Of a stretch of 64,000 nucleotides of DNA, positions 16,229 through 63,938 are shown one piece after another (the stretch's first letter is position 1; each line of letters opens with the position of its first letter). The DNA lies in contig OY970296.1 of assembly GCA_963716175.1 (NCBI GenBank), positions 1,888,001 to 1,952,000 on the forward strand, read 5' to 3'. The position numbers and the translations under genes are program-made. The notes below the pieces were generated by a model, which was not told the origin of the DNA, ran no database searches, and worked only from the letters and a program-made list of their open reading frames with translations. This DNA comes from an uncultured Armatimonadetes bacterium (lineage in GTDB: Bacteria > Armatimonadota > Hebobacteria > Hebobacterales > Hebobacteraceae).

Positions 16229-16460
16229 CTCAATTCCCACACGGACTAGGCAGTGGGAATCGAAACCCCCAACCTCGTCCGATGGCGGAGAGTGTTCGAT
16301 GGTGAGTGTAGTTTCCTCCACCTCCTGTAAACCAGAAGCCAAGTCTCGTCTACAGCTGCAGAGAGTGTCTGATCCCAGGTCAGTCTCCCCCCGCCATGGT
16401 CCCGTTCCGGCAGGACCGCCGCCCACCCCGCCGAAGCATCCCGTGTGGTCGCCCCAGGCA
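16229..16460 (+). repeat. Module A units plus linker leading into the hairpin repeat
   Basis: 16311-16478 reads identical to 29326-29493 and near-identical to 57586-57746. Confidence 0.85.
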
Positions 16461-16478
16461 CCCCCGACTCCGGCTACC

Positions 16479-17771
16479 TGTGCGGACCGGTTACATGGGT
16501 AACGGATGTGCCGAGTACATAGGTAACACTTCTACTCCGCCTTCGGGCACTCCCCTAGTGTCAGGCGTTTGATCACCTGATGGCAGAAGAGCACCTCCAC
16601 CAGGCCGTCGATATCAGTGGCGCGCACGGCCACCGGCTGACCGCGGAAGGCCTTGGAAACGGGCAGCAGACGCCCCCCGAAGTGCACCTCGCCCCCACGC
16701 TGCACCTTGCGCACCGGCAGCCCCGGCGGGTACTGGATCGGCTCCAGCTGCGCGGGGTAGGCGCGCAGGCTGGGCTGGTAGCGACTTGCCGGCACCTCCA
16801 GCGCGAGCGCCTCGTGAGGGCGCAGGAAGTTATATTGCTCCCGCCACGGATCCAGGTGCGCCTGCAGGTGCTCCCCGTCTCGCCACTGGTGCCGCGCCAG
16901 CAGCTCTCGCTGCAAGCTGCCATGGAAGCGTTCATCCTTGCCCACGGTCTGGGGATGGTAGGGCCGAGAGTGAGTCACGTATATCCCCAGCCGCATCAGC
17001 CACACCGCCAGCGCCCCATATGCGTCCGCGGCCAGATCTCCCCAGGGACCTCCATTGTCCGACAGCATCGCCTCCGGCACCCCATAGTGCCGGAAAGCGG
17101 CCACTAGCGCCGCCTGCACGGAGCACCCGTCCTGCTTGGGCAGCGCCTGCAGAGAGAGGGCAAAGCGAGAATGATCGTCCAGCACGCTCAGCACGTGCTG
17201 GGGACCCGTCTGCGTCGCTACCGGCGCCTTGAAGTCCATCTGCCAGAGGTCGTTGGGCAGTGGGCGCTCGAAACGCACCCAGGGGCGCTGACCCGCAGGC
17301 GAGTCCGCACCGATGAGCGCGTGCCGATGCAGGGTCGCGGTAATGGAGCTGGTGGCTGGCACGGGGTGGAGGCCCTGGTTGCGGAGCAGCCGGCGAAGCT
17401 TGCGGGCTCCCCAGCACGGGTGCGCCTGGCGGAGCGCCACGATTGCCTGCTGGGTGGCTGCCGGCAGTTGCGGGCGCCTCCGGTGGGGCCGGCGGGAGTG
17501 ATCCCGCAAGCCCACTTCCCCGGCCTCAGCAAAGCGATAACACCATTTGTAGCCGATCCTGGGGCTGATGCCGAAGCGGCGGCACAGATCCCGAAACGGC
17601 ACCCTCCCCTGCTGGGCGAACATCACAAACTCCCGTCGCTGCTGCTCCACGGTAACTGGCTCCCAGGGCATGGCCCCTCTCCTCTAGGAAGAGATGCATG
17701 CCTCTATAGTAACCGCTTGCCCGTTACCTATGTATCCGGTACGAGTGTTACCTATCTATCCAGTCTGTACA
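16479..17771 (-). mobile_element. IS481-family insertion sequence, copy 1 (1293 bp)
   Basis: TGT...ACA ends with repeated ACATAGGTAAC-like motifs; 5-bp target duplication CTACC (16474-16478 and 17772-17776). Confidence 0.93.
16532..17671 (-). CDS. IS481 family DDE transposase
   Basis: N-terminal HTH, WGARKL, WQMDFK, SDNG, GKDERFH, YNFLRPHEAL. Confidence 0.95.
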   Translation of the reverse strand: MPWEPVTVEQQRREFVMFAQQGRVPFRDLCRRFGISPRIGYKWCYRFAEAGEVGLRDHSRRPHRRRPQLPAATQQAIVALRQAHPCWGARKLRRLLRNQGLHPVPATSSITATLHRHALIGADSPAGQRPWVRFERPLPNDLWQMDFKAPVATQTGPQHVLSVLDDHSRFALSLQALPKQDGCSVQAALVAAFRHYGVPEAMLSDNGGPWGDLAADAYGALAVWLMRLGIYVTHSRPYHPQTVGKDERFHGSLQRELLARHQWRDGEHLQAHLDPWREQYNFLRPHEALALEVPASRYQPSLRAYPAQLEPIQYPPGLPVRKVQRGGEVHFGGRLLPVSKAFRGQPVAVRATDIDGLVEVLFCHQVIKRLTLGECPKAE

Positions 17772-17889
17772 CTACCCCCTCGGCTGGGAGTCACTACCCG
17801 GGGCTCCGTCGCGGACAGGGACATCAGCCGCGCCACGGGGCGATCTCGGAGAGACCCGCCCAGTCGGATCCTCTGTCGCTGCTCTTCTG

Positions 17890-17995
17890 CATCCTCTATG
17901 CCTCCCAGTACAGGGGTATGCACGAAGGGAGAGAAGAGCACGAGACGGGCAGTAGCGGCGGCCTGGGCGCCAGATGAGTTTCTGGACAGCAGGGG
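17890..17995 (-). mobile_element. Module B: left-end remnant of the integrase-core-type IS
   Basis: caggggtatgcacgaagggagagaa...gatgagtttctggacagcagggg is shared with 19170, 24480 and 59556. Confidence 0.7.
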
Positions 17996-18021
17996 CCCAC
18001 GTGTCGGCCCAGGGGAATACC

Positions 18022-18813
18022 ATGGACGCTATCAGTAAGGACAACCGGGAGCGCTGGAACGCTTTGGCGAATGCCAACGTGATGTACTCGGTGCCCTACC
18101 TAGACTTCACCCGTGAGAACGCCGCTGACTACGCGTATGGCTATGGCATTCTCAAGGACGTCTCCGGGAAGAGGGTCCTCTGTCTGGCCAACGGCGGCGG
18201 GCAAGCGTCGGTCGCCTTTGGGTTGCTGGGCGCTGACGTTACCGTGCTCGATCTCTCGGACGTGCAGCTCGCACGCGACCGGGAGGCGGCGCGCCATCAT
18301 GGGCTGACGGTGGAGACTGTCCAGGGAGACATGCGCGACCTGTCTACGTTCGGCACGAGCCACTTCGACGTCGTCTGGCAGCCCTACTCGCTGAACTACA
18401 GCCCCACCGTGGAACCCGTCTTCCGGGAAGTGGCCCGTGTTCTCAAGCCCGAGGGCATCTACCACGTGACCTTCGCGAATCCGTTCACACAGGCCGTGGA
18501 TGATGATAGTTGGGATGGCGAAGGATACCGCCTGCGCGGTCTCTATAGTGATGGCGAGGACATGAGCCGCTACTTCCCGACCTGGGACGTGGAGCAGTCG
18601 GACGGCTCGATCATCACGGTGGATCGCCCTCACGAGTTCCGTCACAACCTGAGCACCGTGCTGAATGCACTCGTGCAGAACGGGTTCGTCCTGCTGCACC
18701 TGAAGGAATGGATGCGCCACGCCGAGCCCCTTGAGCCTGGTTCCTGGCCCCACTTCACCCAGGCTGCCCCGCCCTGGTTCGACTCGTTCTGGCAGCTCAG
18801 CAAGGCGCGATAG
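18022..18813 (+). CDS. Class I SAM-dependent methyltransferase
   Basis: VLCLANGGGQ motif I, VLDLS, GDMRDL, RVLKPEG. Confidence 0.9.
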   Translation: MDAISKDNRERWNALANANVMYSVPYLDFTRENAADYAYGYGILKDVSGKRVLCLANGGGQASVAFGLLGADVTVLDLSDVQLARDREAARHHGLTVETVQGDMRDLSTFGTSHFDVVWQPYSLNYSPTVEPVFREVARVLKPEGIYHVTFANPFTQAVDDDSWDGEGYRLRGLYSDGEDMSRYFPTWDVEQSDGSIITVDRPHEFRHNLSTVLNALVQNGFVLLHLKEWMRHAEPLEPGSWPHFTQAAPPWFDSFWQLSKAR

Positions 18814-18993: not shown

Positions 18994-19085
18994 TGCCCCT
19001 GTCAGCCGCCCGTAAGGCCGCCCCCGGGCGCCCCCGACTCCGGCTACCCCCTCGGCTCGGGGTCACTGCCTGGGGTTTCGTCGCG
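18994..19085 (+). repeat. Hairpin repeat copy 2 with left terminal arm
   Basis: tgcccctgtcagccgcccgt...; core 19036-19064. Confidence 0.9.
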
Positions 19086-19159
19086 CGTGAGACGTGACCA
19101 GCTGAGGCACGACAGCGGCCGAAGTGCTGGAGGCCCTACCCAGTCCAGTCCCGGATCGA

Positions 19160-26518: not shown

Positions 26519-26598
26519 CCGCTCGTGAAGCCGGCCTCAGGGCACCTCTCGACTCCGGCTGCCCCCTCGGCTGGGAGTCAGGTCTGGGGTTCCGTTGC
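26519..26598 (+). repeat. Hairpin repeat copy 3
   Basis: ccgctcgtgaagccggcctcag arm; core 26551-26579. Confidence 0.9.
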
Positions 26599-26706
26599 GT
26601 ATGCGGCTGATCCGAGCCCGCACGCAGGCTGATGAGCTGTCGGAGATCCGCGGTCCCATGAGCCTATGACAAGGGGCGCATACTCTACAGGGGTGGCCGC
26701 GCAGGA

Positions 26707-29110: not shown

Positions 29111-29466
29111 ATCGAACTCCCAGACCTCGCCCGTTGGTGGAGAGTTTCTGTGTCTAGGCCTGTTTCCCCCACCATTCGCGAGTAGAACCCTCGTCTGAAG
29201 GCGGGGAATGCTCCGATCACCTTGGGACTACAGCGCGGTTTCAATTCTCACTGCCTCACCCAAACGCGCCCCTCATTGAAACGGGGAATCCGTCCACAGC
29301 CGGAGAGAGTTTCGTTCTCAGGAACGTTTCCTCCACCTCCTGTAAACCAGAAGCCAAGTCTCGTCTACAGCTGCAGAGAGTGTCTGATCCCAGGTCAGTC
29401 TCCCCCCGCCATGGTCCCGTTCCGGCAGGACCGCCGCCCACCCCGCCGAAGCATCCCGTGTGGTCG
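29111..29466 (+). repeat. Module A tandem units plus linker
   Basis: Homologous to 6630-6860 and 16311-16460. Confidence 0.85.
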
Positions 29467-29530
29467 CCCCAGGCACCCCCGACTCCGGCTACCCCCTCGG
29501 CTGGGAGTCATTGCCCGGGGTCTCGTCGCG
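29467..29530 (+). repeat. Hairpin repeat copy 4, the uninterrupted equivalent of the IS481 target
   Basis: Core 29481-29509; outer stem ccccaggca/tgcccgggg. Confidence 0.92.
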
Positions 29531-29721
29531 TGTGGCGGACGCGGTTGGCAGGATGCTCGTACCCTCGACCATCACTCCATGTGCCGCGACGATCCCCCAT
29601 GGCTGCCAGCGTGTGCTCGCCACCTCGGACAAGGCTGTGCGGGCCAGTGCTCTCGATGTGGTATGCCTGCTACGAGCAGAGTGCCACGCCACACTCGAAG
29701 GCACAGCAAGGAGGCCGTGGG

Positions 29722-29875: not shown

Positions 29876-29946
29876 CCGCCGAAGCATCCCGTGTGGTCGC
29901 CCCGGCCACCCCCTCGACTTGGAGTCAGCGGCCGGAGCTCCGTCGC
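29876..29946 (+). repeat. Hairpin repeat copy 5 (5' arm deleted)
   Basis: ccgccgaagcatcccgtgtggtcgcccc linker, then ccccctcgacttggagtc. Confidence 0.75.
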
Positions 29947-30311
29947 ATATGCGCTAAGCGTACTTCCCAGGAGAGAACGGCTTCCGCAGGCGCCGCCCAG
30001 GTTCTCATATGGTAGAGTGTCTGGGAGTCACCGGCAGGCCAGCAGGGCTGTCACCGATGTGCCATCGCCACTGAACATGAACACTCTAACCGCCTCGCTT
30101 CCGCTCCAGACGCGCGAGTGCGCTGACGTGTGAGCGGGGTATAGCGCGGATGCGGCGCGCTACGGCAATCCTCCGACGAATGTTTCCACCCGCACCATAG
30201 TCTTCCCCTGCTCGCGAGGAACGCCCGGACAGAGCTTCTCGGGAGCACACCGACAGGCTTCCGAACCCAATAGCAGAACTCATCTGTGTGATCTCCCGGA
30301 AAGGTATCTCT

Positions 30312-39007: not shown

Positions 39008-39224
39008 CCGCTCGTGAAACCGGCCTGAGGGCACCCTCGACTCCGGCTACCCCCTCGGCTGGGAGTCAGTGGTCGGGGTTTGGTCGCCATGCAGGCAAGC
39101 GCACTGCCCAACGCGAAAGCGGCGCCCGAAGGCGCCGGACCCTGGCTTCAGATGATACAGGAGTAGGACCGCGCTCTCAACCCTAGCGTGCACTCAGGCC
39201 GGTTTCACGGGCGGGTGAGAGGCA
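39008..39224 (+). repeat. Hairpin repeat copy 6 with both terminal arms
   Basis: ccgctcgtgaaaccggcctgag (39008) pairs with ctcaggccggtttcacgggcgg (39193); core 39039-39067. Confidence 0.9.
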
Positions 39225-41710: not shown

Positions 41711-41901
41711 GTCGAGGGGACAGGACCGCGGTAGACGCGGTGACGCGCGCCGGGCTGCGAAGTGACACCGGTCGCGGTCGGCAGGGAGGTCAGGCGGCGA
41801 GCCGTTAGCCGGTGATCCGGGTATCGGCGAAGACGCAACCCTCGATAGTGGCTGGCAGTGTCCTGGCTGACTTCTCCGGCCTGCTCCGCTCTTCTTCGTG
41901 T

Positions 41902-42065
41902 GCGACGCCCCCGGGCACCCCCGACTCCGGCTACCCTCGGCTTGGAGTCATTGTTCGGGGTTTCGTCGCGGACCATCTGCTGCCGGCATTCCTAGACACG
42001 CGGCCAGACGCACCCCGGTTGGAGGCGTGATGTCAGGCCGGCTTCACGGGCGTCTGACAGGGGCA
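41902..42065 (+). repeat. Hairpin repeat copy 7 with right terminal arm
   Basis: Core 41923-41949; ends tcaggccggcttcacgggcgtctgacaggggca. Confidence 0.9.
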
Positions 42066-43358: not shown

Positions 43359-43502
43359 TCTCGGCCCCCATAGGGCCGTCCTGGGCGGGTTCTGGGCTTG
43401 CGCCGGCTGACTCCCTCCCCTACCATCTGGGGCCGGTAGGCGGTGCCTTCGGGTGCCGCCCAATGCCCAGGCGTCAGCACGCGTGGAGACCATTGCGGAT
43501 GT

Positions 43503-43662
43503 CCCCGTACACCCCCGACTCCGGCTACCCCCTCGGCTCGGAGTCACGGCCCGGGGCTCAGTCGCGTAGCGTCGAGCTGGGGCTCTTCCCGGACACGCGG
43601 GTCACGCCTTTCCGGCTAGCGGCGTGATGTCAGGCCGGCTCCGCGGGCGCTTCACAGGCACA
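43503..43662 (+). repeat. Hairpin repeat copy 8 with 3' half
   Basis: Core 43517-43545; gctcttcccggacacgcgggtcac...gtgatgtcaggccggct. Confidence 0.9.
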
Positions 43663-45198: not shown

Positions 45199-45337
45199 GC
45201 TATCCTCCATCCGGTAATGCCCAGCATAGATGACACCTGATCTCAGCTTCTACTTGAACCTCAAGGCCACCCGGGAGCATGGGTGTCCGCTCCACACGTC
45301 AACAGGGCCGCCGTTCGCCCTCGCAAACTATCCTCGC

Positions 45338-45502
45338 CGACGGCCCCGGGCAGCCTCGACTCCGGCCACGCCCTCGGCTGCGAGTCACGGCCCGGGTTTC
45401 GTCGCGGGTCGTCGAGCGAGGGCTCTTCCCGGACACGCGGGTCACAGCCTTTCGGTTGGCGGCGTGATCTCAGGCCGGCTTCACGGGCGCTTCACAGGCA
45501 CA
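45338..45502 (+). repeat. Hairpin repeat copy 9 with 3' half
   Basis: Core 45358-45386; 3' half near-identical to 43580-43662. Confidence 0.88.
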
Positions 45503-46603: not shown

Positions 46604-46792
46604 CTCCCAGTTCCTCCCAACGCAGCCCCCAGCGCTCGACCATCGTGATGTACTGAAACTGATCTGGGGGTTTCTTCGGCAGGTGCCGAGCGGGACCTGC
46701 CCTCTCGCGTGGTTGGTGGGTCAGGTTTCGGATGGCTCGCGCATCGCCGAAACGGAGTCGACGGCGCCCGGCCACCCCCAACTCCGGCTCCC

Positions 46793-48085
46793 TGTGCGGA
46801 CCGGTTACATGGGTAACGGATGTGCCGAGTACATAGGTAACACTTCTACTCCGCCTTCGGGCACTCCCCTAGTGTCAGGCGTTTGATCACCTGATGGCAG
46901 AAGAGCACCTCCACCAGGCCGTCGATATCAGTGGCGCGCACGGCCACCGGCTGACCGCGGAAGGCCTTGGAAACGGGCAGCAGACGCCCCCCGAAGTGCA
47001 CCTCGCCCCCACGCTGCACCTTGCGCACCGGCAGCCCCGGCGGGTACTGGATCGGCTCCAGCTGCGCGGGGTAGGCGCGCAGGCTGGGCTGGTAGCGACT
47101 TGCCGGCACCTCCAGCGCGAGCGCCTCGTGAGGGCGCAGGAAGTTATATTGCTCCCGCCACGGATCCAGGTGCGCCTGCAGGTGCTCCCCGTCTCGCCAC
47201 TGGTGCCGCGCCAGCAGCTCTCGCTGCAAGCTGCCATGGAAGCGTTCATCCTTGCCCACGGTCTGGGGATGGTAGGGCCGAGAGTGAGTCACGTATATCC
47301 CCAGCCGCATCAGCCACACCGCCAGCGCCCCATATGCGTCCGCGGCCAGATCTCCCCAGGGACCTCCATTGTCCGACAGCATCGCCTCCGGCACCCCATA
47401 GTGCCGGAAAGCGGCCACTAGCGCCGCCTGCACGGAGCACCCGTCCTGCTTGGGCAGCGCCTGCAGAGAGAGGGCAAAGCGAGAATGATCGTCCAGCACG
47501 CTCAGCACGTGCTGGGGACCCGTCTGCGTCGCTACCGGCGCCTTGAAGTCCATCTGCCAGAGGTCGTTGGGCAGTGGGCGCTCGAAACGCACCCAGGGGC
47601 GCTGACCCGCAGGCGAGTCCGCACCGATGAGCGCGTGCCGATGCAGGGTCGCGGTAATGGAGCTGGTGGCTGGCACGGGGTGGAGGCCCTGGTTGCGGAG
47701 CAGCCGGCGAAGCTTGCGGGCTCCCCAGCACGGGTGCGCCTGGCGGAGCGCCACGATTGCCTGCTGGGTGGCTGCCGGCAGTTGCGGGCGCCTCCGGTGG
47801 GGCCGGCGGGAGTGATCCCGCAAGCCCACTTCCCCGGCCTCAGCAAAGCGATAACACCATTTGTAGCCGATCCTGGGGCTGATGCCGAAGCGGCGGCACA
47901 GATCCCGAAACGGCACCCTCCCCTGCTGGGCGAACATCACAAACTCCCGTCGCTGCTGCTCCACGGTAACTGGCTCCCAGGGCATGGCCCCTCTCCTCTA
48001 GGAAGAGATGCATGCCTCTATAGTAACCGCTTGCCCGTTACCTATGTATCCGGTACGAGTGTTACCTATCTATCCAGTCTGTACA
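46793..48085 (-). mobile_element. IS481-family insertion sequence, copy 2 (1293 bp)
   Basis: Same ends and identical ORF translations as copy 1; target duplication CTCCC (46788-46792 and 48086-48090). Confidence 0.93.
46846..47985 (-). CDS. IS481 family DDE transposase
   Basis: 379 aa, identical to 16532-17671. Confidence 0.95.
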   Translation of the reverse strand: MPWEPVTVEQQRREFVMFAQQGRVPFRDLCRRFGISPRIGYKWCYRFAEAGEVGLRDHSRRPHRRRPQLPAATQQAIVALRQAHPCWGARKLRRLLRNQGLHPVPATSSITATLHRHALIGADSPAGQRPWVRFERPLPNDLWQMDFKAPVATQTGPQHVLSVLDDHSRFALSLQALPKQDGCSVQAALVAAFRHYGVPEAMLSDNGGPWGDLAADAYGALAVWLMRLGIYVTHSRPYHPQTVGKDERFHGSLQRELLARHQWRDGEHLQAHLDPWREQYNFLRPHEALALEVPASRYQPSLRAYPAQLEPIQYPPGLPVRKVQRGGEVHFGGRLLPVSKAFRGQPVAVRATDIDGLVEVLFCHQVIKRLTLGECPKAE

Positions 48086-51553: not shown

Positions 51554-51903
51554 TGATCGCTTGGCCGGGGCCAAGAGAGCGGGTGGCACACCGGGAGTTC
51601 GTCCTCGGACGGCTGCGAGGCGCTCGCCACGTGGCGAGCCGTGCGGCAGGCGGCGAGGGTGTTGATGGAAGCAGATGGCCTGTCAGAGGGAGATCCCTAC
51701 TGCAAGTTGCGCCGGCGGACATCGGAACGTCGGGTCACGTTGAGAGTGGTGGCAGACGAGATCGTCACCGGCACCAGCAACGGCTGACCTAGCCCTGATC
51801 CCGGCGCTGCCGTCAGAACCGGTGCTGTGCACCCGGCTTCTGCGTGTGACGGGCGCTATATGCCTTGCCACAGGGCCGGTCACACGCGTTGGGCCCAACC
51901 CCA

Positions 51904-51980
51904 CGAAGCATCCCGAGCGACGACCCGGGTATCCCCCGACTCCGGCTACCCCCTCGGCTTGGGGTCACTGCGCGCGGTTC
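51904..51980 (+). repeat. Hairpin repeat copy 11
   Basis: cgaagcatccc linker; core 51938-51966. Confidence 0.88.
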
Positions 51981-51986
51981 CCCCGC

Positions 51987-53312
51987 TTACCTGGCGCGCA
52001 CCACCGCTGCCCATTGTCCCGGGCCTGGCGCCTGCAAGCGTGCCGATCTGCCGGCCGCCGCCTGCGCTTCGCGGGTCCACTGGGCCTGGCCGATATCGTA
52101 CCAGCGGATGGTGGCACCGCCTGAGGAGCCCGTCACGTCGAGTTCTGCCGCGCCGCCATCAGTGAAGTACACGGCATACTCCAGGCCGGGCCGCGCCAGG
52201 CAGTAGGCAACATCGTCTCCGTCCGTATGCAGCAGGTCCTGTCGCGGCTCGCAGGCGAACACGTCCAGGGCTGCCGTCACCGCGCGAGCGCTTCGCATCA
52301 TCTGCTGGGCCATTTCGGTGAATGCGAGGTGCTTCTCATGGAACCGGGCAGAGGCCGCGCCCCCGATGATGTTCCGCCAGAAGCGCGCCATCCCGTCCTG
52401 GGCGGTGCCGAAGTACGTGTTGCCATAGATCTTCACATTGCTCAGCGGTCGAGGCCTGGCCGCGATGCGGTTGCGCACGTACTGGATCCCATCATAGTGG
52501 GCGCGACCGAACTGGAGGTTGTTCTGCGCCATCTCGATGTAGTCGAAGAGATCGGGCCGGTCAATCACGTGCAGGTGCTCGGGATCGCGCATATCCTTCG
52601 GGTCTCGCATTTCCGTGATGTAGACTGTCCTCCCGGCCTCTGCCGCCCGCTTCCGAACGTGCCGCGCCCAGTACTCTCCCCACTTGGGCGTCACCATGGT
52701 CTCGTTGTTCATACAGTACAGCACGTGGTCGTAGCGTAGGGTGTGAGCGAGCACTCGGTCAACAAACCTCTGCTGATAGCGCAGCACCTCCTTCAGATCG
52801 TGCTCCTCAGGGACGCTCCAGAAGAAGGTATTCTCGGCCTTCGAAGGTTCGCTGTCCACGACAGTCGGAAGCCCGGTGGTCTCAGCCGAGTAGTTTGTGT
52901 TGTTCGCCGGGTTGAACGGACTGACGCGCCAGGGATCGCGGTAGTAGTCGAAGGTGGCCCAGAGCTCGCAGTCGGTGACGATCCCTCGTGCCGCGGTTTC
53001 CCGCAGGAACAGCTCGAACCGGTCCCAGTACTCTTCGTTCCACTGATCCAGGTCGTAGCGGTCACCGACTCGGGCGAACGGATAACGGCCGGTCGTCTCC
53101 TGGCCAGACATCAAGCAGCGCGTCCAGTTGCCGCCGACCGCGACCAGGGCGTCGAGGTACTCCACCAGGTTCGGCAGGTGGAAGACACCAATATCGGCCA
53201 CCCCCTCCGCACGCGGCGACCCGCCTAGAAGCAGCATCGGCACTCCATCGAGCTGCCAGTAGTACCTGTTGCCGGGGTAGATGCTGACGCCTTGCTCGCG
53301 GCTAGTTGTCAC
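51987..53312 (-). CDS. GH-like barrel protein with C-terminal putative collagen-binding domain (DUF4038/DUF6298-like)
   Basis: YWQLDGVPMLLLG, YDLDQWNEEYWDR, NNE, YCLARPGLEYAVY. Confidence 0.7.
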   Translation of the reverse strand: MTTSREQGVSIYPGNRYYWQLDGVPMLLLGGSPRAEGVADIGVFHLPNLVEYLDALVAVGGNWTRCLMSGQETTGRYPFARVGDRYDLDQWNEEYWDRFELFLRETAARGIVTDCELWATFDYYRDPWRVSPFNPANNTNYSAETTGLPTVVDSEPSKAENTFFWSVPEEHDLKEVLRYQQRFVDRVLAHTLRYDHVLYCMNNETMVTPKWGEYWARHVRKRAAEAGRTVYITEMRDPKDMRDPEHLHVIDRPDLFDYIEMAQNNLQFGRAHYDGIQYVRNRIAARPRPLSNVKIYGNTYFGTAQDGMARFWRNIIGGAASARFHEKHLAFTEMAQQMMRSARAVTAALDVFACEPRQDLLHTDGDDVAYCLARPGLEYAVYFTDGGAAELDVTGSSGGATIRWYDIGQAQWTREAQAAAGRSARLQAPGPGQWAAVVRAR

Positions 53313-53572
53313 TTCCCCTCCCCCAGTCCATCTGGCATTGCCAGCATTGCCGATGATTCATGGCGCCGCCTGCGAGTCCCTTCTCAGCGAGTAGTGAGGA
53401 GAGCCGCTCCACCAGCCTAGAGCAGGACCGTCCAGAGGCCCCTTGGCGCCCAAGAACTCGCATGTGCGTGACCGGCAGGCGAACACGCGCTGAGTCACGG
53501 CCTGATGACGAGTCATGGTGATGCAGAGGACCAACAGGCCGTCGCCGCCTCTGCCCAAGCCAGGCCGCCAAC

Positions 53573-53735
53573 GGCCCCGTGCACCCCCCGACTCCGGCTA
53601 CCCCCTCGGCGTGGAGTCACGGCCCGGGGCTCAGTCGTGGGTCGTCGTGCGACGGCGCGTCCCGGACACGCGGGCCGCAGCATTCCGGTTGGCGGCGTGA
53701 TGTCAGGCCGGCTTCGAGGGCGCCCGACACGGACA
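53573..53735 (+). repeat. Hairpin repeat copy 12 with 3' half
   Basis: Core 53590-53618; ggcggcgtgatgtcaggccggctt. Confidence 0.9.
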
Positions 53736-53768
53736 CGTGGAGGCAGACGGCTCTCTGGACACTACGAA

Positions 53769-55798
53769 TCACTCGCTCTCAAGCGTCAAGAAGACGACGG
53801 AGTGTGCGGGGATCGTGCACGTTACGCGGGGACCTGCCAGCGTGACCGGCAGCTCTGTGATCGCGTCCTCCTTGCGCTGGAGCAGGGGCTTGCCGTCGAG
53901 GTCGTCGTTGCTCAGGAGGATGCCAGTGGCGCGGGCGGCGTCGAAGGTGCGCACGTTGAGGATGCAGGGCACGGCGCGATCCCAGGAGCCGTTGGCGACG
54001 ACGAGGTAGAGCGACTTCCTGTCCTGGCGGAGGGTGACCAGCGCGGGGGTCATGGGCCCGGCATAGTCGGTGGGCCTGTCGGAGAGGCCGTCGGCCGCGG
54101 ATGGGGTGTAGTATGGTGCCACGCCATCCATGTCGAGGGCCCACTCGCCGAGATGGCGGTTAAAGTAGTAGTAAAGCCAGTAGAGCATGAAGCGCTTGTC
54201 GGGCGCGTCTGGAGAGAGGATGCCGAAGCCCTGCTCTTTGCTCCTGGAGAGCATCTCCCAACCGCTCGCGCCACGCAGGATGTGCTCGCGGGCGTAGTAG
54301 ATGAGGCGCACGGCGCGGTGGAGAGTGCCGACGATGTTCGCGTTCCGATCGAACGCGTCCGCGACCTCGCCGTACGGGCCGGAGCTGATCATGCCCCACT
54401 CAGTGTCGTACTGGTAGACATCTCGACCTGGGTTGTAGGCGCGGATGAGAGCGTTGGTGCGCAGGATCAGGTCGAGCTTCTGGTAGTTCGCGGCGAGCAC
54501 GGGCACCTCGAGCGCGCGCTCTTGCAGCCGGTCGATACCGGAGTAGTAGTGGCCCACGACGAAGTCGTAGTGACCGGCGCACTGCTTCAGCACCGCGTTG
54601 CCCCAGGCCTGGCTCTCGGGGTCGACGGCGAGGCCGATCTGGGCAGAGGGCTGCACGGCGCGGATGGCGCGGCTGACCTCGATGAAGTGGTCGATGTAAG
54701 ACTGCGGGGTCGGGAAGGCCGTGCCCTCCCTCATCAGGTAGGGCTCGTTGGCGATCTCCCAGTAGCGGAAGCCGTAGCCCATGTTCACGGAGTGGCGGAC
54801 GCCTCGCGCCCACCGCTCGGGCGGGAGCTTACTGGTCGCGCCCTGGGTCTCGAACTCGAGCACGACGTGGTCCAGAGGCACGCCGACGCGGCGGCAGACT
54901 TCGGCGGCTCTGTCGATGGACTCCTCGACCGGGAACGGCTCATCGCCGACGGCGTAGAAGCGAGTCATGGGGAGGTGGAGGTCGCGGATCGCCTGCTCCA
55001 GCTCGGGCGCGAGGGTGTAGTCCCCCTTCTTGTCGTACGGCTGGCCGGTCCATCCGCAGACGCGGTGGAATGAGATGCCGCCGGCATCCTGGGTGGCGTG
55101 ACGCAGGGGCTTGCCAGCATCCACCGTGATTTCCAGGATGTCGCCGGGGCGCAATCGGTGCTGGAGCGGCGGGTACTTCAGTGCGGACTCATCTGCGAGG
55201 CGATCCTTCCGTGTGCTGGGCTCTTCGGTGACGACGATGTCGTCAACCCAGAGGGTGCGCTCGGCCCGTTGGTCGCGCGTGGCGTAGAACGCGAGCAAGA
55301 GATAGCGGCTCCGGTCGGCGAAGAAGTCCCAGCCCTCATGGAGGGTGAATCGGAAATGCTTCCATCGCTCATCTGCGGCGATGACGAAGTGGCCGGGGAC
55401 GCCGCGTCGATGAACGGGTGGATACTGGAGTAGGCCTCGAGACCGAAGTCCGACATCCCAGGCTGGTCCGCTCTGGCCCAGAAGGAAACAGTGTACATCA
55501 TGCTCCTGCGGGGGCGGATGGCGTGCTCGGGTGATGAGACGGTGTAGCCCTTGGTGCCAGCGGGATGATGGATGCGGAAGCAGGCCCTGCCGCGGTGGGG
55601 GTTGACGGTATCGAGGGTGTAGTTGCCCGGGATCTTGTACTGCCTCGCGCCCCACATGGCCCAGCCCAGCGGCGGCGCTTCCGGGGATGGGATCTCGAAA
55701 TCACCATTGTAGACGAGGTTCTGCGCGCAGTGGGCGGAGGTCCCGAGAACGAGGAGCAACAGACTAGCTGCCACAGCAGCAATGAGTCTCGAGTGCAT
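53769..55798 (-). pseudogene. Secreted CBM plus clan GH-A-like glycoside hydrolase (GH39/44/51-like), frameshifted near 55400
   Basis: Signal peptide plus NLVYNGDFE in one frame; GHFVIAADERWKH...YWEIANEP...DTEWG in another; span 2030 bp. Confidence 0.7.
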
Positions 55799-55807
55799 GG
55801 CTTCCCT

Positions 55808-56135
55808 CTACCGGGTCACGTTTCGGTGCGGGGCCCCGTCATCCTTGGCGTGGGAGGGCCCGCCGCGCGAGCCGCGGTCATGGGCCTTGATGCCGGACTC
55901 CATCGCCGGGGCGCCGGCCTCGTGAGCACCCACGTCCAGGGCCTTCCCGGAGAAGTCATCATTGAAGCTGGGAATCCGGACACCGGCGTCGTAGCCGGGG
56001 CTGCCGCGGGCTAGCCAGAACCGGCCTGGGCCATTCCCGGAGTCACTGCCGGGCTTACGCTTGATGCCGCGGACTCCCTGGGCGCCGGAGGCCCTGATGT
56101 CGCCGCTGAGGAGGTCATAGTCCAAGTCATTGGCG
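55808..56135 (-). pseudogene. C-terminal fragment of a beta-helix protein, paralogous to 24620-26365
   Basis: SPGYDAGVRIPSFNDDFSGKALDVGAHE versus [28 protein letters not shown]. Confidence 0.65.
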
Positions 56136-56217
56136 AGGCTGGTGGTTCTATCGCCGATGCCCGGCACGCGACGTCCACCCGCGAGCCGATGCCACAGCGC
56201 CGCTTGACACAAAGGAG

Positions 56218-56245
56218 TTGACCCAAGGTCGATCTGGTGTAGAAT
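56218..56245 (+). promoter_or_regulatory. Putative sigma70 promoter
   Basis: TTGACC-16bp-TAGAAT upstream of the DUF1559 gene. Confidence 0.5.
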
Positions 56246-56366
56246 GAGACATGAAGGCGGTGGGGGGGCAGCCTGGCCGAGTCGGGCCCGAAAGGAGGTG
56301 GAGGCAGATAGCGGATGGCGCTATGGTCTGGGTACTGTGCCAACCTTCCTAAGGAGGTGTACGAGC

Positions 56367-57368
56367 ATGTTGTCTCGACCACGACGAGGTTTCACCCTGA
56401 TCGAGCTGCTGGTGGTGATCGCAATCATCGCGATCCTCGCCGCAATGCTGTTCCCGGTGTTTGCACGGGCGCGGGAATCGGCCCGCAAGATCCAATGCCT
56501 GTCGAACGTCAAGAACATCGCCATGGCATTTCAGATGTATTTCGTGGACTATGACAGGTACCCGCCGAGGGAACATGACCCGGCTGTGGTGCAGTTCTTC
56601 GCCGACAACGGCTGCGATATGACCCCTGGGTGCTGTACCTACGCCACTGGGTCGAACCCCTATCTGAGGTGGCCGGTCATCATTGACGAGTACGTCAAGA
56701 ACCGCGATGTCTGGAGATGTCCGAGTGCGCGGAACGTATCGTCGGTGCAGCGCGTATGGGGACAGGCGAACTGGTTCCAGGAGCTGAAGGATAACTGGCC
56801 TACTTGCGTCTGCCAGGAAGCATGGCCTCCCGGCTGGGGCGGCACTGTTACCGACAATCTGGCGTTGGTAGACGGCTGCCCAGGTGAGCATGCGACCGTC
56901 GACCAAGGGGCGGTCGAGATGGACTATTCGGACACTCACATAGTCTATGGCGAAGTAGAGAAGAAACTCTCGGCCATCGATGATCCGGCCAAGACCCTCA
57001 TCATTGCCGAGCGGGGCCTCAAGCCGTACTACGACCGCATCGAGCAGGTCGCCTATCCTGAGGCCTGCCGCATCTGCTGGGGCAGCGTGATTGAGAACCC
57101 TGACAACTGCGGCGGAGACTGGGTGAACTGTTCCGAGACTATAGTCTGCGGTGTAGACAAGCACGACATAGACAAGTTCTGGGGCGACCCCTCGTGGCGC
57201 AGCAAGTATACGCGCCACATGGGCGGCAACAACCTCGGTTTCACCGATGGCCACGCCGCCTGGTGGAACGCGAATGCGATACTCGCCGCGGCCAACGCCA
57301 ACCCCAGCCAGCTTCCTCCCATGGGCGCCCAGCATGTGCCCGACTACATACCTGGCGAGCACTGGTAG
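56367..57368 (+). CDS. Prepilin-type N-terminal cleavage/methylation protein (DUF1559, H-X9-DG motif)
   Basis: RRGFTLIELLVVIAIIAILAAMLFPVFARARESAR..CLSN; RHMGGNNLGFTDGH; AAGGAGGT SD. Confidence 0.93.
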   Translation: MLSRPRRGFTLIELLVVIAIIAILAAMLFPVFARARESARKIQCLSNVKNIAMAFQMYFVDYDRYPPREHDPAVVQFFADNGCDMTPGCCTYATGSNPYLRWPVIIDEYVKNRDVWRCPSARNVSSVQRVWGQANWFQELKDNWPTCVCQEAWPPGWGGTVTDNLALVDGCPGEHATVDQGAVEMDYSDTHIVYGEVEKKLSAIDDPAKTLIIAERGLKPYYDRIEQVAYPEACRICWGSVIENPDNCGGDWVNCSETIVCGVDKHDIDKFWGDPSWRSKYTRHMGGNNLGFTDGHAAWWNANAILAAANANPSQLPPMGAQHVPDYIPGEHW

Positions 57369-57582
57369 GCCACTATACAGCACCCATAGTGGCTGGTCGA
57401 TCGTGCGGGCGGGGTCTTCGTTGAGACGACTCCGCCCGCACTTCGCTCCAGAGGCCTGGCTTCCCCCTATAGGCTATCGCACATTGAAGCAATGTGCGAT
57501 AGTTCGCTAGCAGGTGTCGTGTGCCTCTGAGAGTTCCGCCGGGTTAGTTCTCTCGGCGAAGCTCTGTAGATGCGACCAGAAC

Positions 57583-57878
57583 TCACCACCTCCTGTAAAC
57601 CAGAAACCAAGTCTCGTCCACAGCTGCAGAGAGTGTCTGATCCCAGGTCAGTCTCCCCCCACCACAGTCCCGTTCCGGCAGGACCGCCGTCCACCCCGCC
57701 GAAGCATCCCGTGCGGTCGCCCCAGGCACCCCAAACTCCGGCTACCCCCTCGGCTGGGGGTCACTGGGCGGGTTCTGTCGCGGATCATCGGGCTGCCGAC
57801 CTTTCCCGCGCACGCGGATCACCGCTTTCCGCTTGGCAGAGTGACGTCGGACCAGCTCCACGAGTCCGCGACAGGGGC
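57583..57878 (+). repeat. Module A linker plus hairpin repeat copy 13 with diverged 3' half
   Basis: Near-identical to 16319-16478; core 57734-57762. Confidence 0.88.
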
Positions 57879-58000
57879 TGGCGCGCTCAGGTCCCGAAGC
57901 GCCCCGTCACCGCTGGTGAGCCCGTCCTGCGTGTGCTATCATCCAGTTCGGCCAACGAGTTGCATGACTGAGGCCACGTGTCTGGAGAGGGTAAGGCGAA

Positions 58001-59095: not shown

Positions 59096-59407
59096 CTTGA
59101 CGTGTCGTGCCTCGCAGCCGTAACGCGATGTGTTCTCCTGGTCCGGCGCACGCACTCCTGAGAAAGCTCCGGGTGCCGACAGAAGCCGGCGTGGTCGGCG
59201 GCAGGACGAAGATTGGCCGCATCACTGCTTAGTTGCTGGCTGAGCGATGGGTGACGTGCAGTGCCGGCCGCTCATCACCCACTGCTTCCCACGCGACCGG
59301 TCAGTGGAGGGATACGCTACCACTGAGCGCAGAGCGGAGACGGGCCCCGCAAAGTGTTGCTTTGCCCTTGACCGCGAGTGGGCACAGCGTCAACCTCCCG
59401 CGCCATG

Positions 59408-59476
59408 GCCCTCGGGCGCACCCCCGACTCCGGCTGCCCCCTCGGCCGGGAGTCACTGCGCGGCGTTCCGTCGCGC
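59408..59476 (+). repeat. Hairpin repeat copy 14
   Basis: Core 59426-59454. Confidence 0.88.
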
Positions 59477-59479
59477 TTG

Positions 59480-59662
59480 GGCACAGCAGCCGCGCCACGG
59501 TGGCGATCACCGGCAGCCCAACCCAGTCCCATCTCCGCGCGGTATCCCCGCCGCCCATCCTCGGCGCCTCTCAGCGCAGGGGTATGCACGAAGGGAGAGA
59601 ATACCACGGGAGGGGATGCTGGAGCTTCCTGGAAGGCAGATGAGTTCTTGGACAGCGCGGGG
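59480..59662 (-). mobile_element. Module B: IS left end plus transposase stub
   Basis: Encodes RRWDWVGLPVIATVARLLC (same as the 24214-24587 stub); ends gatgagttcttggacagcgcgggg. Confidence 0.75.
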
Positions 59663-60985: not shown

Positions 60986-61151
60986 GATCGGCTCCGACGG
61001 CAGGTCCCAGAGAGGCGCTGCCAACGTGGCACCGACCGACGGTCACGGACCCCACCGCCCTCCGTCTGCTCCACTGCCTGACCTCGGCGTCGACGGCGAT
61101 CATTCGCACCTTAGAGGTGCATACCCCGACCCGAACCGGCTGTCGCTAGCA

Positions 61152-61214
61152 GGCCCCGGCAACCCCGACTCCGGCTACCCCCTCGGCTTGGACTTGTGCG
61201 GACCGGATACAGAT
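61152..61214 (+). repeat. Hairpin repeat copy 15, truncated by an IS481-like end
   Basis: Core from 61167; TGTGCGGACCGG at 61195 equals the first 12 bp of the IS481 end. Confidence 0.8.
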
Positions 61215-61375
61215 GCAAGAGCAGCAGGGAAGCCCTGGGCTCAGCAGAAGCGAAGCCCCCGTCTGGGCACGGGTGACCGCGGCGTGTGGTCTGCCTTGGC
61301 ACGGGGTTCCGGCCCGGCATCAGGAGGGGCTTCCTCCCAGCAATCAGTGCTCAGGAGCATGAGGAGGGTGTACAG

Positions 61376-61867
61376 ATGAAAGGGCTACGTTCGGTCGCGT
61401 TGGTACTTGGGCTGGCCGCCGCTTTGGCGGCCCCGGCCCTGTCCGGTCAGCGGGGTGGTGGCGGCCGTCGGGGCGGAGGTGGTGGACAGGGCGGTAGCAT
61501 GAAGGCCCTGCTCGACCGCCTTGGGTTCACCGAGCAGGAGCTGGCCGCGGTGCAGAAGAGCATGGAGGCCAAGTCCAAGGCTCATCAGACACTCGAGGAC
61601 GAACTCGGTAAGTTGCGCGAGGTCGCTGGCAATGACAAGTCCACCGACCAGCAGCTCCGTGGGGCCATCGACAGCTACACCGAGGCCCTGGCGCGATACC
61701 GGGAGACAGTGCGGACCGAGGATCGCTCCCTCTCAGGCCGCCTCTCAGTAAGGAGCCGGGCGCGCTGCCTGGCAGCCGGGGCCCTTGACAACGGACTTGG
61801 CATGGGTGGCGGAGGGCGCGGCGGTGGAGGCGGAAGGCGTGGAGGTGGGGGCGGACGGCGGTCCTAG
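61376..61867 (+). CDS. Secreted helical protein with Gly/Arg-rich termini (Spy/CpxP-like)
   Basis: Signal peptide, LGFTEQE helical region, RGGGGRRGG tracts. Confidence 0.6.
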   Translation: MKGLRSVALVLGLAAALAAPALSGQRGGGGRRGGGGGQGGSMKALLDRLGFTEQELAAVQKSMEAKSKAHQTLEDELGKLREVAGNDKSTDQQLRGAIDSYTEALARYRETVRTEDRSLSGRLSVRSRARCLAAGALDNGLGMGGGGRGGGGGRRGGGGGRRS

Positions 61868-61979
61868 CCCGCTCCTCCAAGAGCCAGCCTGAAGGCGACT
61901 GCCGAGCCGACGGGGTGAACGACTGGAGAGCCGTGGCAGCCGGTCGCGGGCGCCAGCGGTTCTGCCCCCAGCGCCCGGT

Positions 61980-62070
61980 TGCCATTGTCAGCCGCCCGTG
62001 AAGCCGGCCCGAGAGCACCCCCGACTTCGGCTACCCCCGTGGCTGGAGTCAGTGGCCGGGACTCGCCGCG
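61980..62070 (+). repeat. Hairpin repeat copy 16 with left arm
   Basis: tgtcagccgcccgtgaagccggccc arm; core 62023-62050. Confidence 0.88.
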
Positions 62071-62166
62071 GATGACACGGCGATCTCCCCACTGCCCATC
62101 ACCGGCGTCGCCATTCGACTCTGTTCCCCACTTGGCATCTTCGCCATTTCCGAACCCTCGCGGCGG

Positions 62167-62414: not shown

Positions 62415-62430
62415 CCGCTCGCTTCCACTC

Positions 62431-62516
62431 ACGCGTAGGAAAAAGCCGCTCTAGATACCTTCAGAGCAGCCTCCGCGAGGCGGGCTAAGCCCCCTCGGGG
62501 TACCCCTCTTGCGCGT
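62431..62516 (+). ncRNA. Candidate structured 5' leader RNA of the TrmH-family gene
   Basis: Closing stem acgcgtagga/tcttgcgcgt encloses hairpins gctct/agagc, gcctccgcgaggc, gggctaagccc and ccctcggg. Confidence 0.4.
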
Positions 62517-62643
62517 CCCCTCGTAATGCCCCCGAGTTCGCACCATTCTCCCGGCTTTGCCGCCTTTCGGCTCCTGCTCAGGCATTGGGCTCCCGTCTTC
62601 CCCCTGCCATCGCCTCCTCCGCAGCCGCCATTGGTGGCCTCTC

Positions 62644-63441
62644 ATGCTCATCACCAGCCGGGACAACGAAAGGATCAAGCGGATCCGGGGCTTGTTCGGC
62701 CGCAAGCACCGCGATCGCACGCGCCTCTTCCTGGTGGAGGGGATCCGGCACGTGGGCGAGGCCGTCGCCGCCGGCGCCCTCATCGAGTGCCTCTGCTACG
62801 CCCCCGACCTCCTCACCAGCGAGTTCGCCCACCGGCTGATCGCCGAGCAGGAGGCCCGCGGCGTGCCCTGCCACGCCGTCGCGCCCGGCGTCTTCGCCGC
62901 CCTGACGGTGAGGGAGAATCCGGCCGGCCTCCTCGCCGTGGTGCGGCAGTCCCCCTCCCGGCTGGACGACCTGCACCCGGAGGTCTTTCCCTGGGGGGTA
63001 GCCCTGGTCGCACCCCAGGATCCGGGCAATATCGGCGCCATCCTCCGCACCGTGGATGCGGTCGGCGCCAGCGGGCTGATCCTGCTGGACGCCAGCGCCG
63101 ACCCCTACCATCCCGGCGCGGTGCGCGCCAGCATGGGCGCGCTGTTCTCCCACCCGGTGGTGCGGGCCTCCTTCGGCGCCTTCGCCACCTGGGCGAAAGC
63201 AGGCGGCTATCGGATCTGGGGCACCTCCTCTCGCGCCGACCGGGATTACCGCGAGGTCGAGCGCTACTCGCGCCCCCTCCTCCTCCTCATGGGAAGCGAG
63301 CGGAAGGGGCTACTGCCGGAGCAGATGGCGCTCTGCGACGAAGTGGTGCGGATGCCGCTGCGGGGGCGGGTGACCTCCCTGAACCTCGCCATCGCCACCG
63401 GCGTCATGCTCTACCAGATGCTGGCGCGAGGTGAGGAATGA
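62644..63441 (+). CDS. TrmH/SpoU family RNA 2'-O-methyltransferase (TsnR-like N-terminus)
   Basis: ITSRDN..K, QDPGNIGAILRT, VRASMG, MGSERKG, SLNLAIA. Confidence 0.92.
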   Translation: MLITSRDNERIKRIRGLFGRKHRDRTRLFLVEGIRHVGEAVAAGALIECLCYAPDLLTSEFAHRLIAEQEARGVPCHAVAPGVFAALTVRENPAGLLAVVRQSPSRLDDLHPEVFPWGVALVAPQDPGNIGAILRTVDAVGASGLILLDASADPYHPGAVRASMGALFSHPVVRASFGAFATWAKAGGYRIWGTSSRADRDYREVERYSRPLLLLMGSERKGLLPEQMALCDEVVRMPLRGRVTSLNLAIATGVMLYQMLARGEE

Positions 63442-63649
63442 TGGCGGCCCTCTTGCTCCTCCCTCCCAGGCCATCCTGGCGCCCCGGGCGGAGGCTCGTG
63501 AGGGCCTCCCGCCCGGTCCGCAGCCCGCCCCGCGGGAGCTGGTGGCCGCCACCTTTGTCGGCCCTTCGCGACCTTCCCCCTGGTGACGAAATGCTCTCGC
63601 CCCTGTAGAACGCGGTTGCTAGCCGAGCATCCTACCATGGGAGGGGAGT

Positions 63650-63758
63650 ATGGGCCACGGCGTTCCCCGCAGTTGGTCGGTGCTGTTGGTAGTGGTCGTT
63701 CTGGTGATGGCGATTCTGGCCGCGTCGCAGGCGCAGGCGGCGGTGAACCCCACTGTGG
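63650..63758 (+). pseudogene. 5' stub (signal peptide) of a secreted-protein gene, cut by the hairpin element
   Basis: GGAGG SD, MGHGVPRSWSVLLVVVVLVMAILAASQAQAAVNPTV, then repeat sequence. Confidence 0.55.
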
Positions 63759-63938
63759 CTGTTAACCGCCCGTATAGCCGGCCTGAGAGTCCCCCCGACT
63801 CCGGCTACCCCCTCAGCTGGAGTCACTGCCCGGGGTTAACCGCGCCATTGAGCGGCAGCTCTTCTCGGACACGCGGATCACAGCCTTCCGGTTGGCGGCG
63901 TGATGCCAGGCCGGCTCCATGGGCACCTGACAGGGGCA
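63759..63938 (+). repeat. Hairpin repeat copy 17, full-length (about 180 bp) with both arms
   Basis: ctgttaaccgcccgtatagccggcctg ... caggccggctccatgggcacctgacaggggca; core 63797-63824. Confidence 0.9.

Follow-up and report, generated by a model that had tools for sequence, protein, structure and literature searches.

A co-oriented hairpin repeat between single genes of an uncultured Armatimonadetes bacterium, a possible recombination joint in a cassette-like flexible-gene architecture

What is the structured repeat that stands, always on the same strand, between the mostly single genes of this 64,000-nucleotide stretch (the window; positions 1,888,001 to 1,952,000 of contig OY970296.1 from an uncultured Armatimonadetes bacterium)? 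A preliminary description, made from the letters of the window, had counted seventeen copies and proposed a strand-specific site similar to the repetitive extragenic palindromic (REP) sequences or to the attC sites of integrons. Our analysis shows that the repeat is a real family, unmatched in any search made here, and that it is a lineage-specific intergenic mosaic that resembles BIMEs (interspersed mosaic elements of bacteria) and in which a constant core is combined with optional modules belonging to gene ends and gene starts. As to its function we favour, with a confidence that stays a little below even, the reading of the cores as points at which the units of a cassette-like, flexible set of genes recombine.

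The genome under study (G000) is one contig of 4.56 Mb, and G005, G008, G011 and G012 are further genomes used for comparison. Copies in the window were sought using cmsearch with the covariance model R1, built from 13 intact window copies and a hand-drawn structure of 24 pairs, while genome copies were counted by nhmmer. With this model 15 copies were recovered from the window, every one of them on the + strand and at E-values between 3.5e-18 and 1.5e-4, and the remaining two (at 16466 and 46780) are each interrupted by an identical insertion sequence (IS) of 1,293 bp, so that all seventeen copies are found where they had been placed, and on the + strand. The 10-mer GACTCCGGCT with at most one mismatch has 22 matches in the window as compared to 9.62 +/- 3.34 in shuffled sequence, none of 100 shuffles reaching 22. 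Its + strand matches include 16 of the 17 starts, and the seventeenth, at about 29907, is a partial copy matched by the model at 29885-29957. An exact 10-mer on the - strand at 35629 was ruled out as a copy, the covariance model being silent there.

The constant part of the repeat is a compound hairpin of 85-90 bp, called the core in the following, with the consensus cGACGG CCCCGG GCA CCCCC GACTCC GGCT ACCCCCTC GGCT G GGAGTC AC TGC CCGGGG TTC CGTCG. Three stems can be distinguished. CGACG/CGTCG forms the outer foot, CCCCGG.GCA/TGC.CCGGGG the middle stem and GACTCC.GGCT/GGCT.GGGAGTC the inner stem, which closes the nearly invariant loop ACCCCCTC. In alignments fitted to the model structure 80.4% of the cells are paired for the 51 copies taken from three genomes, and sliding the partners lowers this share to 28-54%; for 109 distinct metagenome copies the corresponding values are 82.8% and 32-57%. 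The inner helices are paired in 92-97% of the cells, and the loop together with the inner stem is almost invariant across genera. The outer stems of the preliminary description are real, though imperfect: they are paired in 70-77% of the cells and show compensatory changes in 72 cells as compared to 42.3 +/- 5.2 after shuffling, with none of 500 shuffles as high. G:T pairs possible on the top strand only number 161 against 49 of the mirror-image kind, 77 of the 161 coming from two near-invariant positions. The stability of the hairpin is unexceptional, as the minimum free energy of three copies gave z-scores against shuffled sequence of +0.14 to +1.62 on the + strand and -0.86 to +1.13 on the - strand. 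It had also been stated that the core lacks the GTAG/CGTC foot of REPs. This holds insofar as there is no unpaired tag, but the outer foot CGACG/CGTCG does contain CGTC, in paired form. The first view of a structured, strand-locked intergenic family is supported. No Rfam family matched either strand of the window at gathering thresholds, and among the papers listed on intergenic repeats of Armatimonadetes none described such a family, no wider search for novelty having been made.

At fixed offsets from the core optional modules occur, on the left side either T, which is itself a hairpin, or A, and on the right side either P or B-W-t, where t is an inverted T. In 19 of 25 cases T comes after the 3' end of an upstream gene that is co-oriented, and in 10 of 13 cases B-W-t comes before the 3' end of a downstream gene that is opposite; a portion of P is shared by two genera as the conserved 5' leader of an orthologous gene. 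Because the modules track gene ends and starts they look like gene signals, and only the core ignores the direction of the genes. T is also found alone, away from cores, at 10 sites. In a metagenome strain with 95.8% identity the left module between gene and core is swapped, while the core and its P module are kept. The full copies of 180-215 bp with inverted arms of 20-30 bp, as described at first, exist in a few cases. Their arms, however, are the separate gene-3'-end hairpin T/t, and an upstream T together with a downstream B-W or t was found in only 3 of the 102 genome copies, the inverted T lying about 100-145 bp downstream of the core. The copies of the window are the following:

16431..16478, + strand: left half of a core copy, split in the loop by an IS (nhmmer match at 1,904,431-1,904,478; IS junction)
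17772..17816, + strand: right half of the same copy (nhmmer match at 1,905,772-1,905,816)
19006..19095, + strand: core copy with a T module before it (cmsearch 86.2 bits)
26519..26609, + strand: core copy with a T module before it (cmsearch 74.5 bits)
29452..29540, + strand: core copy with an A module before it (cmsearch 91.8 bits); its 170-bp left extension is common to the copies at 16466 and 57734
29885..29957, + strand: partial core copy without the inner loop (cmsearch 34.8 bits; alignment)
39008..39098, + strand: core copy (cmsearch 75.2 bits)
41894..41980, + strand: core copy followed by W-t modules (cmsearch 84.6 bits)
43487..43576, + strand: core copy followed by B-W-t modules at about 43592-43650 (cmsearch 84.4 bits)
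45328..45416, + strand: core copy followed by B-W-t modules (cmsearch 77.9 bits)
46750..46792 (start approximate), + strand: left half of the core copy that the second IS interrupts; its right half begins at 48086
51909..51997, + strand: core copy with an A module before it (cmsearch 68.0 bits)
53557..53649, + strand: core copy followed by B-W-t modules (cmsearch 70.7 bits)
57705..57792, + strand: core copy with an A module before it (cmsearch 74.9 bits)
59394..59485, + strand: core copy followed by a P module from about 59484 (cmsearch 66.6 bits)
61141..61221, + strand: core copy (start at 61167 in the first count) truncated after the right arm and lacking the right outer stem, followed by an 850-bp unit (cmsearch 32.1 bits)
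61992..62080, + strand: core copy with a T module before it (cmsearch 67.9 bits)
63766..63856, + strand: core copy with T upstream and B-W downstream, the one closest to the full copy of the preliminary description (cmsearch 67.9 bits)

In total G000 has 102 copies (72 on the + and 30 on the - strand), which lie in about 11 blocks. Neighbouring copies within 20 kb are co-oriented in 89 of 92 pairs and opposite in three, and the same orientation is shared by the members of 60 of 62 neighbouring pairs, at a median spacing of 1,427 bp, in a set of 80 metagenome contigs that includes near-duplicates. According to our own calls of open reading frames (ORFs), the genes flanking the 102 copies are arranged same/same in 50 cases, opposite/same in 21, same/opposite in 18 and opposite/opposite in 13, and all four arrangements claimed for the window thus occur across the genome. 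Eight copies fall inside called ORFs, and these calls are doubtful. The content of the arrays is mixed. Units of the window encode a methyltransferase, an ankyrin protein of 1,126 aa, a beta-helix protein, an RGL11 lyase, GH20 and DUF5009 proteins, an APH-like kinase, a DUF3160 protein, an aminotransferase, an enolase-superfamily enzyme, a heparinase-like protein, a DUF1559 pilin-like protein and a SpoU methylase. Among 49 inter-core intervals from metagenomes 29 contain exactly one ORF of at least 100 aa. The 49 ORFs of these metagenome cassettes, 27 of them co-oriented with the core and 22 opposite, are likewise mixed, and as only about five belong to carbohydrate-active families, the earlier statement that many of the genes are secreted enzymes of this kind was too strong.

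The distribution of the core is narrow. In a survey of 61 Armatimonadota genomes many copies were found only in G000, G005 and G011, and single copies in four other genera of the same family, whereas 46 genomes of 21 other families had none. The single cores of the four genera have no neighbour, tRNA or recombinase in common. An exact 21-mer of the core was found in at least 119 metagenome stretches and in 12 genome-contig stretches, the latter from two records of Armatimonadota metagenome-assembled genomes (MAGs) plus a single contig whose MAG is labelled Solirubrobacterales; viral contigs gave no match to it. The public sequencing runs listed as containing the sequence are at least 20, from 16 studies, all of them of DNA and none recorded as RNA. 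The Solirubrobacterales-labelled contig (L028) has a single exact 21-mer at 6667-6687, for which mis-binning or transfer is possible. Logan contigs of four wetland or sediment metagenomes, compared with window positions 38001-58000, end at almost every core, and in most core-containing bins the summed depth climbs to about 40-170, from a level of about 5-20; the repeat therefore fragments short-read assemblies of this organism. The repeat-to-repeat joints in these contigs rest on 20-35 letters per side and could stem from other copies or organisms, and we draw no conclusion from them.

The evidence for a role in recombination comes from the units between the cores. Core-bounded units reappear at 91-99% identity in other arrays, where their neighbours are different, also inverted across the origin, and their homology ends in or near the core. 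Paralogous pairs in G000 are 1,061,137-1,060,663(-) and 2,025,798-2,026,271(+), as well as 2,058,804-2,057,692(-) and 2,259,820-2,260,935(+). The 850-bp unit, coding for a 193-aa ORF without a Pfam family, is present three times in G000 at 94-98% identity (window positions 61222-61991; 2,026,271-2,027,061; 2,258,965-2,259,820), each copy opening with an IS-like end right after a truncated core, and the metagenome contig L103 has it at 95-97% identity beside DNA which is found at 4.55 Mb in G000. The IS-like end, TGTGCGGACCGG, directly adjoins several cores. Units that are adjacent in the arrays of G005 are scattered in G011, a member of the same genus, mostly without cores and at 72-88% identity. 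Two units X and Y follow each other as core-X-Y in G000 and as core-Y...core-X in G011, and one G005 unit consists of a gene plus a 110-bp stump of the neighbour which that gene has in G000. The suggestion that the repeats border independently shuffled single-gene units is thus borne out by the recurrence of the same units in different arrays and genomes. Recognition of the core by its sequence is indicated by the almost invariant loop and inner stem, by the compensatory changes of the outer stems and by an IS481-family element whose full copies lie in the loop only.

In order to map the joints, 210 nearly full copies were aligned to the profile, pairs with exactly one common flank of at least 95% identity were taken, duplicates were collapsed and a change point was fitted; eight of the resulting nine non-redundant pairs were inspected by eye. 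Five joint intervals (25-30, 25-37, 29-34, 27-38 and 29-34, two of which involve one unit) are all compatible with model column 29-30, i.e. the left foot between the T/A module and the CCCCGG stem. The others are 39-58 in the loop, 39-62, which is doubtful as it reaches a contig end, 78-92 in the right stem and 88-94 in the right foot. Homologous exchange should be resolved in the invariant inner core, and since only two of the nine joints lie there a purely homology-driven exchange is weakened. The joints thus fit neither a single fixed crossover nor pure homologous exchange, and, small as the sample of nine pairs is, they are most simply summed up by a preference for the left foot, with other events in addition.

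On the reading of the cores as recombination joints, exchange at or beside the core would lead to the gain and loss of gene units and to their movement between arrays. The units would face either way, and start and end signals would belong to each of them. A circle carrying one core could insert into a resident core, or cores could exchange unequally; both events would always leave direct repeats, which would explain why the arrays are locked in one orientation. The presumed enzyme would prefer a joint at the left foot, the core moving with the downstream unit, and additional exchanges of homology-driven appearance would take place elsewhere in the core. Several observations speak against such joints. 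Neither a circle nor an excision scar nor a near-identical pair of strains differing by exactly one unit was seen, and in two strain-level comparisons (94-97% identity) the homology ended 100-170 bp from the core and not within it. Nor do the joints coincide in one nucleotide: of the eight usable pairs, three or more have theirs in the loop, in the right stem or at the right foot. There is no physical link between the cores and any recombinase, and no transposase or recombinase is found among the 49 metagenome cassette ORFs. The single cores of the four other genera stand in ordinary, unrelated contexts, so the core can persist without an array. Finally, the alignments used for the pairing values were fitted to the model structure and are hence biased toward it.

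A candidate for the enzyme acting at the cores is a multi-copy Xer-like tyrosine recombinase of 325 aa. It is closest to XerC/XerD, below the cut-offs of these models (XerC 232 bits, cut-off 335), and matches the integron integrase model TIGR02249 with 63 bits (cut-off 265) over model positions 246-300 in its C-terminal part only. An integron integrase is absent, as none of the 26 tyrosine-recombinase matches in the whole genome reaches this cut-off; the best one has 90 bits and is partial. At more than 80% identity the Xer-like gene is multi-copy only in array-rich genomes, with two intact copies and fragments in G000 and six intact copies and fragments in G011. G005 has at least one copy, and G008 and G012 carry the gene with an in-frame TGA and have no cores nearby. 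At a distance of 7-15 kb from an array's first core there are five intact or fragmentary copies (G000 808 kb and 2,242 kb; G011 1,588 kb, 4,378 kb and 1,790 kb), whose transcription leads away from the array. This interval contains restriction-modification or CRISPR-Cas genes and no cores, even with filters switched off (best candidates E = 0.21 to 0.96). The homology between the copies ends at the ORF ends, their 3' flanks being unrelated, and no core-like site stands beside the gene. Fragments of it are found within arrays, some directly beside a core (e.g. G000 2,027,195 and L109), and only one fragment occurs in 486 kb of array-bearing contigs. The association of recombinase and arrays is suggestive, and it could equally reflect shared residence in variable islands.

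Every copy of the Xer-like gene examined (G000 808,848-809,825, L007, and 2,242,368-2,243,381, L008; G011 L013, L016 and L018) has a defence system on its 5' side (type IIG, III or I restriction-modification, Mrr-like, or CRISPR-Cas), and the 3' side usually has a gene for an SLH-domain surface protein. Three other loci of G000 (2,841,6xx-2,843,3xx; 2,959,8xx-2,961,5xx; 3,032,2xx-3,033,9xx) contain two adjacent tyrosine-recombinase genes of another family and represent perhaps a multi-recombinase mobile element.

A more specific reading than recombination joints as such makes the system an analogue of integrons, in which this Xer-like recombinase would be dedicated to the core, folded or as a double strand, and by cutting and rejoining it at the foot would excise and insert gene units in a site-specific manner. 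We regard this as rather unlikely. The relationship to XerC, the multiple copies in array genomes only, the five copies at array starts, the fragments inside arrays and beside cores and the five of nine joints that fit one left-foot point are all in line with it, but the protein is not IntI, the gap to the arrays is filled by defence genes, the conserved segment of the recombinase copies stops at the ORF without a core-like site, two other genomes have the interrupted gene without nearby cores, recombinase fragments are very rare in array contigs, four of nine joints are off the left foot, and both partners may merely be enriched in variable islands. More improbable still is a non-autonomous single-strand transposon of the REP/RAYT (REP-associated tyrosine transposase) or IS200/IS605 kind, whose hairpin would insert into the lagging-strand template. 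With the origin presumed near dnaA (1.34 Mb; the GC skew has its minimum at about 1.15 Mb and changes its sign to positive near 1.15-1.2 Mb) and the terminus presumed near 3.58 Mb, 93 of 102 copies in G000 have their top strand on the side of the lagging-strand template and the orientation switches across the dnaA/GC-skew-minimum region. The excess of top-strand-only G:T pairs would also suit such an element, as would the clustering of joints at the hairpin feet, which bear CGTC on one or the other strand, and the presence of Y1 (RAYT-like) genes in the genome. However, the copies are not spread along the replichores, and their fit is one of only about 8 of 11 blocks; elsewhere the GC skew is patchy, and the skew at third codon positions (GC3) is between -0.05 and +0.04 in the arrays, too weak to give the direction of replication of contigs or of G011. 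In G011, the only complete relative, dnaA is at 2.65 Mb, nine + copies lie to the left of it at 1.80-1.99 Mb and twelve + copies to the right at 4.39-4.43 Mb, and only 17 of 28 copies fit an origin at dnaA. The replication-strand bias proposed at first is therefore not established, and the orientation lock is a property of direct-repeat arrays. Nearly half of the top-strand G:T cells come from the two near-invariant positions, and four comparisons of filled with unfilled sites gave no clean insertion and no target-site duplication, the homology stopping at the unit without being resumed past the core. The six Y1_Tnp (RAYT-like) loci of G000 (L001-L006, e.g. 961,993-962,520) are flanked by GTAG-tagged palindromes with 5-29 occurrences in the genome or by other short repeats, five or six of them having GTAG, and even at E = 10 the core model has no match there. 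The core is thus distinct from the GTAG REPs, as had been supposed, these being a second repeat family unrelated to it, and an HUH enzyme linked to it was not found. PF04986 (IS91/Y2 transposase) gave no match, but as control genomes were equally silent this carries no weight.

There are two further explanations. The core could be a regulatory or structural signal under selection, such as a terminator, an insulator or a protein-binding site, and the arrays tandemly amplified DNA. The strong conservation of the loop across genera and the single cores persisting in four other genera would be expected of such a signal, and the modules do behave as gene signals. Nevertheless, we consider the explanation improbable, for the core ignores the direction of transcription, and a signal acting on the transcript would therefore be antisense in about a third to half of the cases; moreover, the fold is no more stable than that of shuffled sequence, and the units between the cores are unrelated genes and not tandem duplicates. 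Scarcely credible, and largely refuted, is an ordinary miniature inverted-repeat transposable element (MITE) of 180-215 bp, bounded by terminal inverted repeats and moved by a DDE transposase. Such an element should be oriented randomly, against the co-orientation of nearly all neighbouring pairs, and it should leave target-site duplications or clean empty sites, of which none was seen. A few copies do have T upstream and an inverted T downstream, and an IS-like end adjoins several cores, but both arms are present in only three copies of the genome, and T occurs by itself at core-free sites and follows gene ends.

Should the cores be recombination joints, this lineage shuffles full-size, self-expressed genes singly by means of a conserved site. 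A farther-reaching possibility, to which we give little credence, is an independent invention of the integron principle in Armatimonadota, in which a Xer-family recombinase without the IntI insertion, or another enzyme, would act at the foot of a conserved 90-bp hairpin and move units of up to several kb which face either way and retain promoters and terminators of their own. It would mean a cassette system for large genes such as polysaccharide lyases, and the same genes outside arrays in sister genomes would offer a natural view of genes becoming cassettes. Orthologues of array genes stand in ordinary contexts in sister genomes, and therefore, if the cores are such joints, the first acquisition of a cassette site could be studied here by comparison. 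Because short-read contigs break at the repeats, metagenome bins probably miss part of the flexible genes of these wetland and sediment Armatimonadota.

The two interrupted copies of the window each carry an IS of the IS481 family in the loop of the core:

16479..17771, no strand given: IS481-family IS of 1,293 bp in the core loop, with a 5-bp duplication CTACC (Pfam rve/HTH/LZ_Tnp_IS481)
16532-17671, - strand: transposase ORF of this IS, 379 aa (NCBIfam NF033577, 261 bits, cut-off 224)
46793..48085, no strand given: identical second copy of the IS481-family IS, likewise in a core loop, duplication CTCCC (BLAST 100% over 1,293 bp at 1,934,793-1,936,085)

Two more full copies are present in G000 (1,725,520-1,726,812 and 1,973,971-1,975,263), and all four, at 99.9-100% identity, were inserted with a 5-bp duplication at one and the same point of the core loop, always facing the same way with respect to the core. 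A fragment of the other end of this IS adjoins a core at 1,058,742-1,058,889. IS1397 and ISKpn1 are described as targeting palindromic units in PMC1525189. The strict targeting of the loop by an IS481-family element adds a sixth IS family to the five REP-targeting ones named there.

A number of tRNA genes lie in or beside the arrays. ARAGORN finds five tRNA-Phe(GAA) genes in G000, of which four are inside arrays, each antiparallel to the cores, and there is in addition a hybrid pseudo-tRNA with a replaced 5' part; the positions of these tRNA-Phe genes and the pseudo-tRNA are 747,667, 789,636, 981,231, 2,099,497, 2,285,183 and about 2,279,655-2,279,731. One or two tandem units of about 72 bp, each opening with the first approximately 25 bases of tRNA-Phe, precede four of the five tRNA-Phe genes. 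A tRNA-Ser(TGA) gene ends about 250 bp before the first core of the array at 1,610-1,625 kb.

In comparison with known systems the layout of the repeat resembles attC arrays and its composition resembles mosaics of the BIME type, but it does not pass the tests that define either system. A REP is a palindrome of 20-40 bp with an unpaired GTAG or CGTC tag (PMC3733652), REP units alternate in orientation within clusters (PMC2817692), and the BIMEs of E. coli are associated with strain-variable regions (PMC1525189). With these the core has in common that an intergenic palindromic repeat forms a mosaic with accessory motifs (PMC3733652, PMC3333891, PMC1525189), that its loop is a specific IS target as palindromic units are for IS1397 and ISKpn1 (PMC1525189), and that it is associated with strain-variable regions. 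In contrast to REPs, the core is 85-90 bp long instead of 20-40 bp, has no unpaired GTAG or CGTC tag since its CGTCG pairs with CGACG, and is targeted by an IS481 element, which is outside the five REP-targeting families of PMC1525189. Also, its copies are direct and not alternating, only 3 of 92 pairs being opposite, and they do not flank the RAYT-like genes of this genome.

Another arrangement with which the arrays can be compared is tandem accretion at tRNA genes. It is known from integrative elements in genomic islands and from the tycheposons of Prochlorococcus. Here as there direct repeats separate cargo units in flexible islands and decayed recombinase fragments occur, in this case inside the arrays, which moreover start beside tRNAs or contain them (tRNA-Ser at 1,609,762 and the four extra tRNA-Phe copies). 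However, the core is, judged by eye only, no evident fragment of a tRNA, and most units are without an integrase and are single genes, not multi-gene elements.

Integron arrays, those of sedentary chromosomal integrons included, consist of co-oriented hairpin attC repeats between mostly single-gene cassettes, and clusters of attC sites lacking an integrase are known as CALINs. Integrons shuffle only small promoterless cassettes. The arrays described here are like them in being long series of co-oriented hairpin repeats between mostly single genes of unrelated function, in the near-uniformity of the repeats within a lineage, in sharing units between different arrays, and in having a Xer-related tyrosine recombinase near some arrays which is transcribed away from them. 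They differ in the absence of IntI and of the R boxes: the attC motifs RYYYAAC/GTTRRRY occur neither in the consensus nor in the alignments, as already observed in the preliminary description, and the feet are CGACG and CGTCG, the 3' side reading GGGGTTCCGTCGCG. Furthermore, not just the structure but the sequence of the repeat is conserved, and the joints are not at one nucleotide. The genes of these arrays face both ways (27 versus 22) and have their own signals, the units are up to 3-5 kb long, and the core seems to travel with the downstream and not with the upstream unit.

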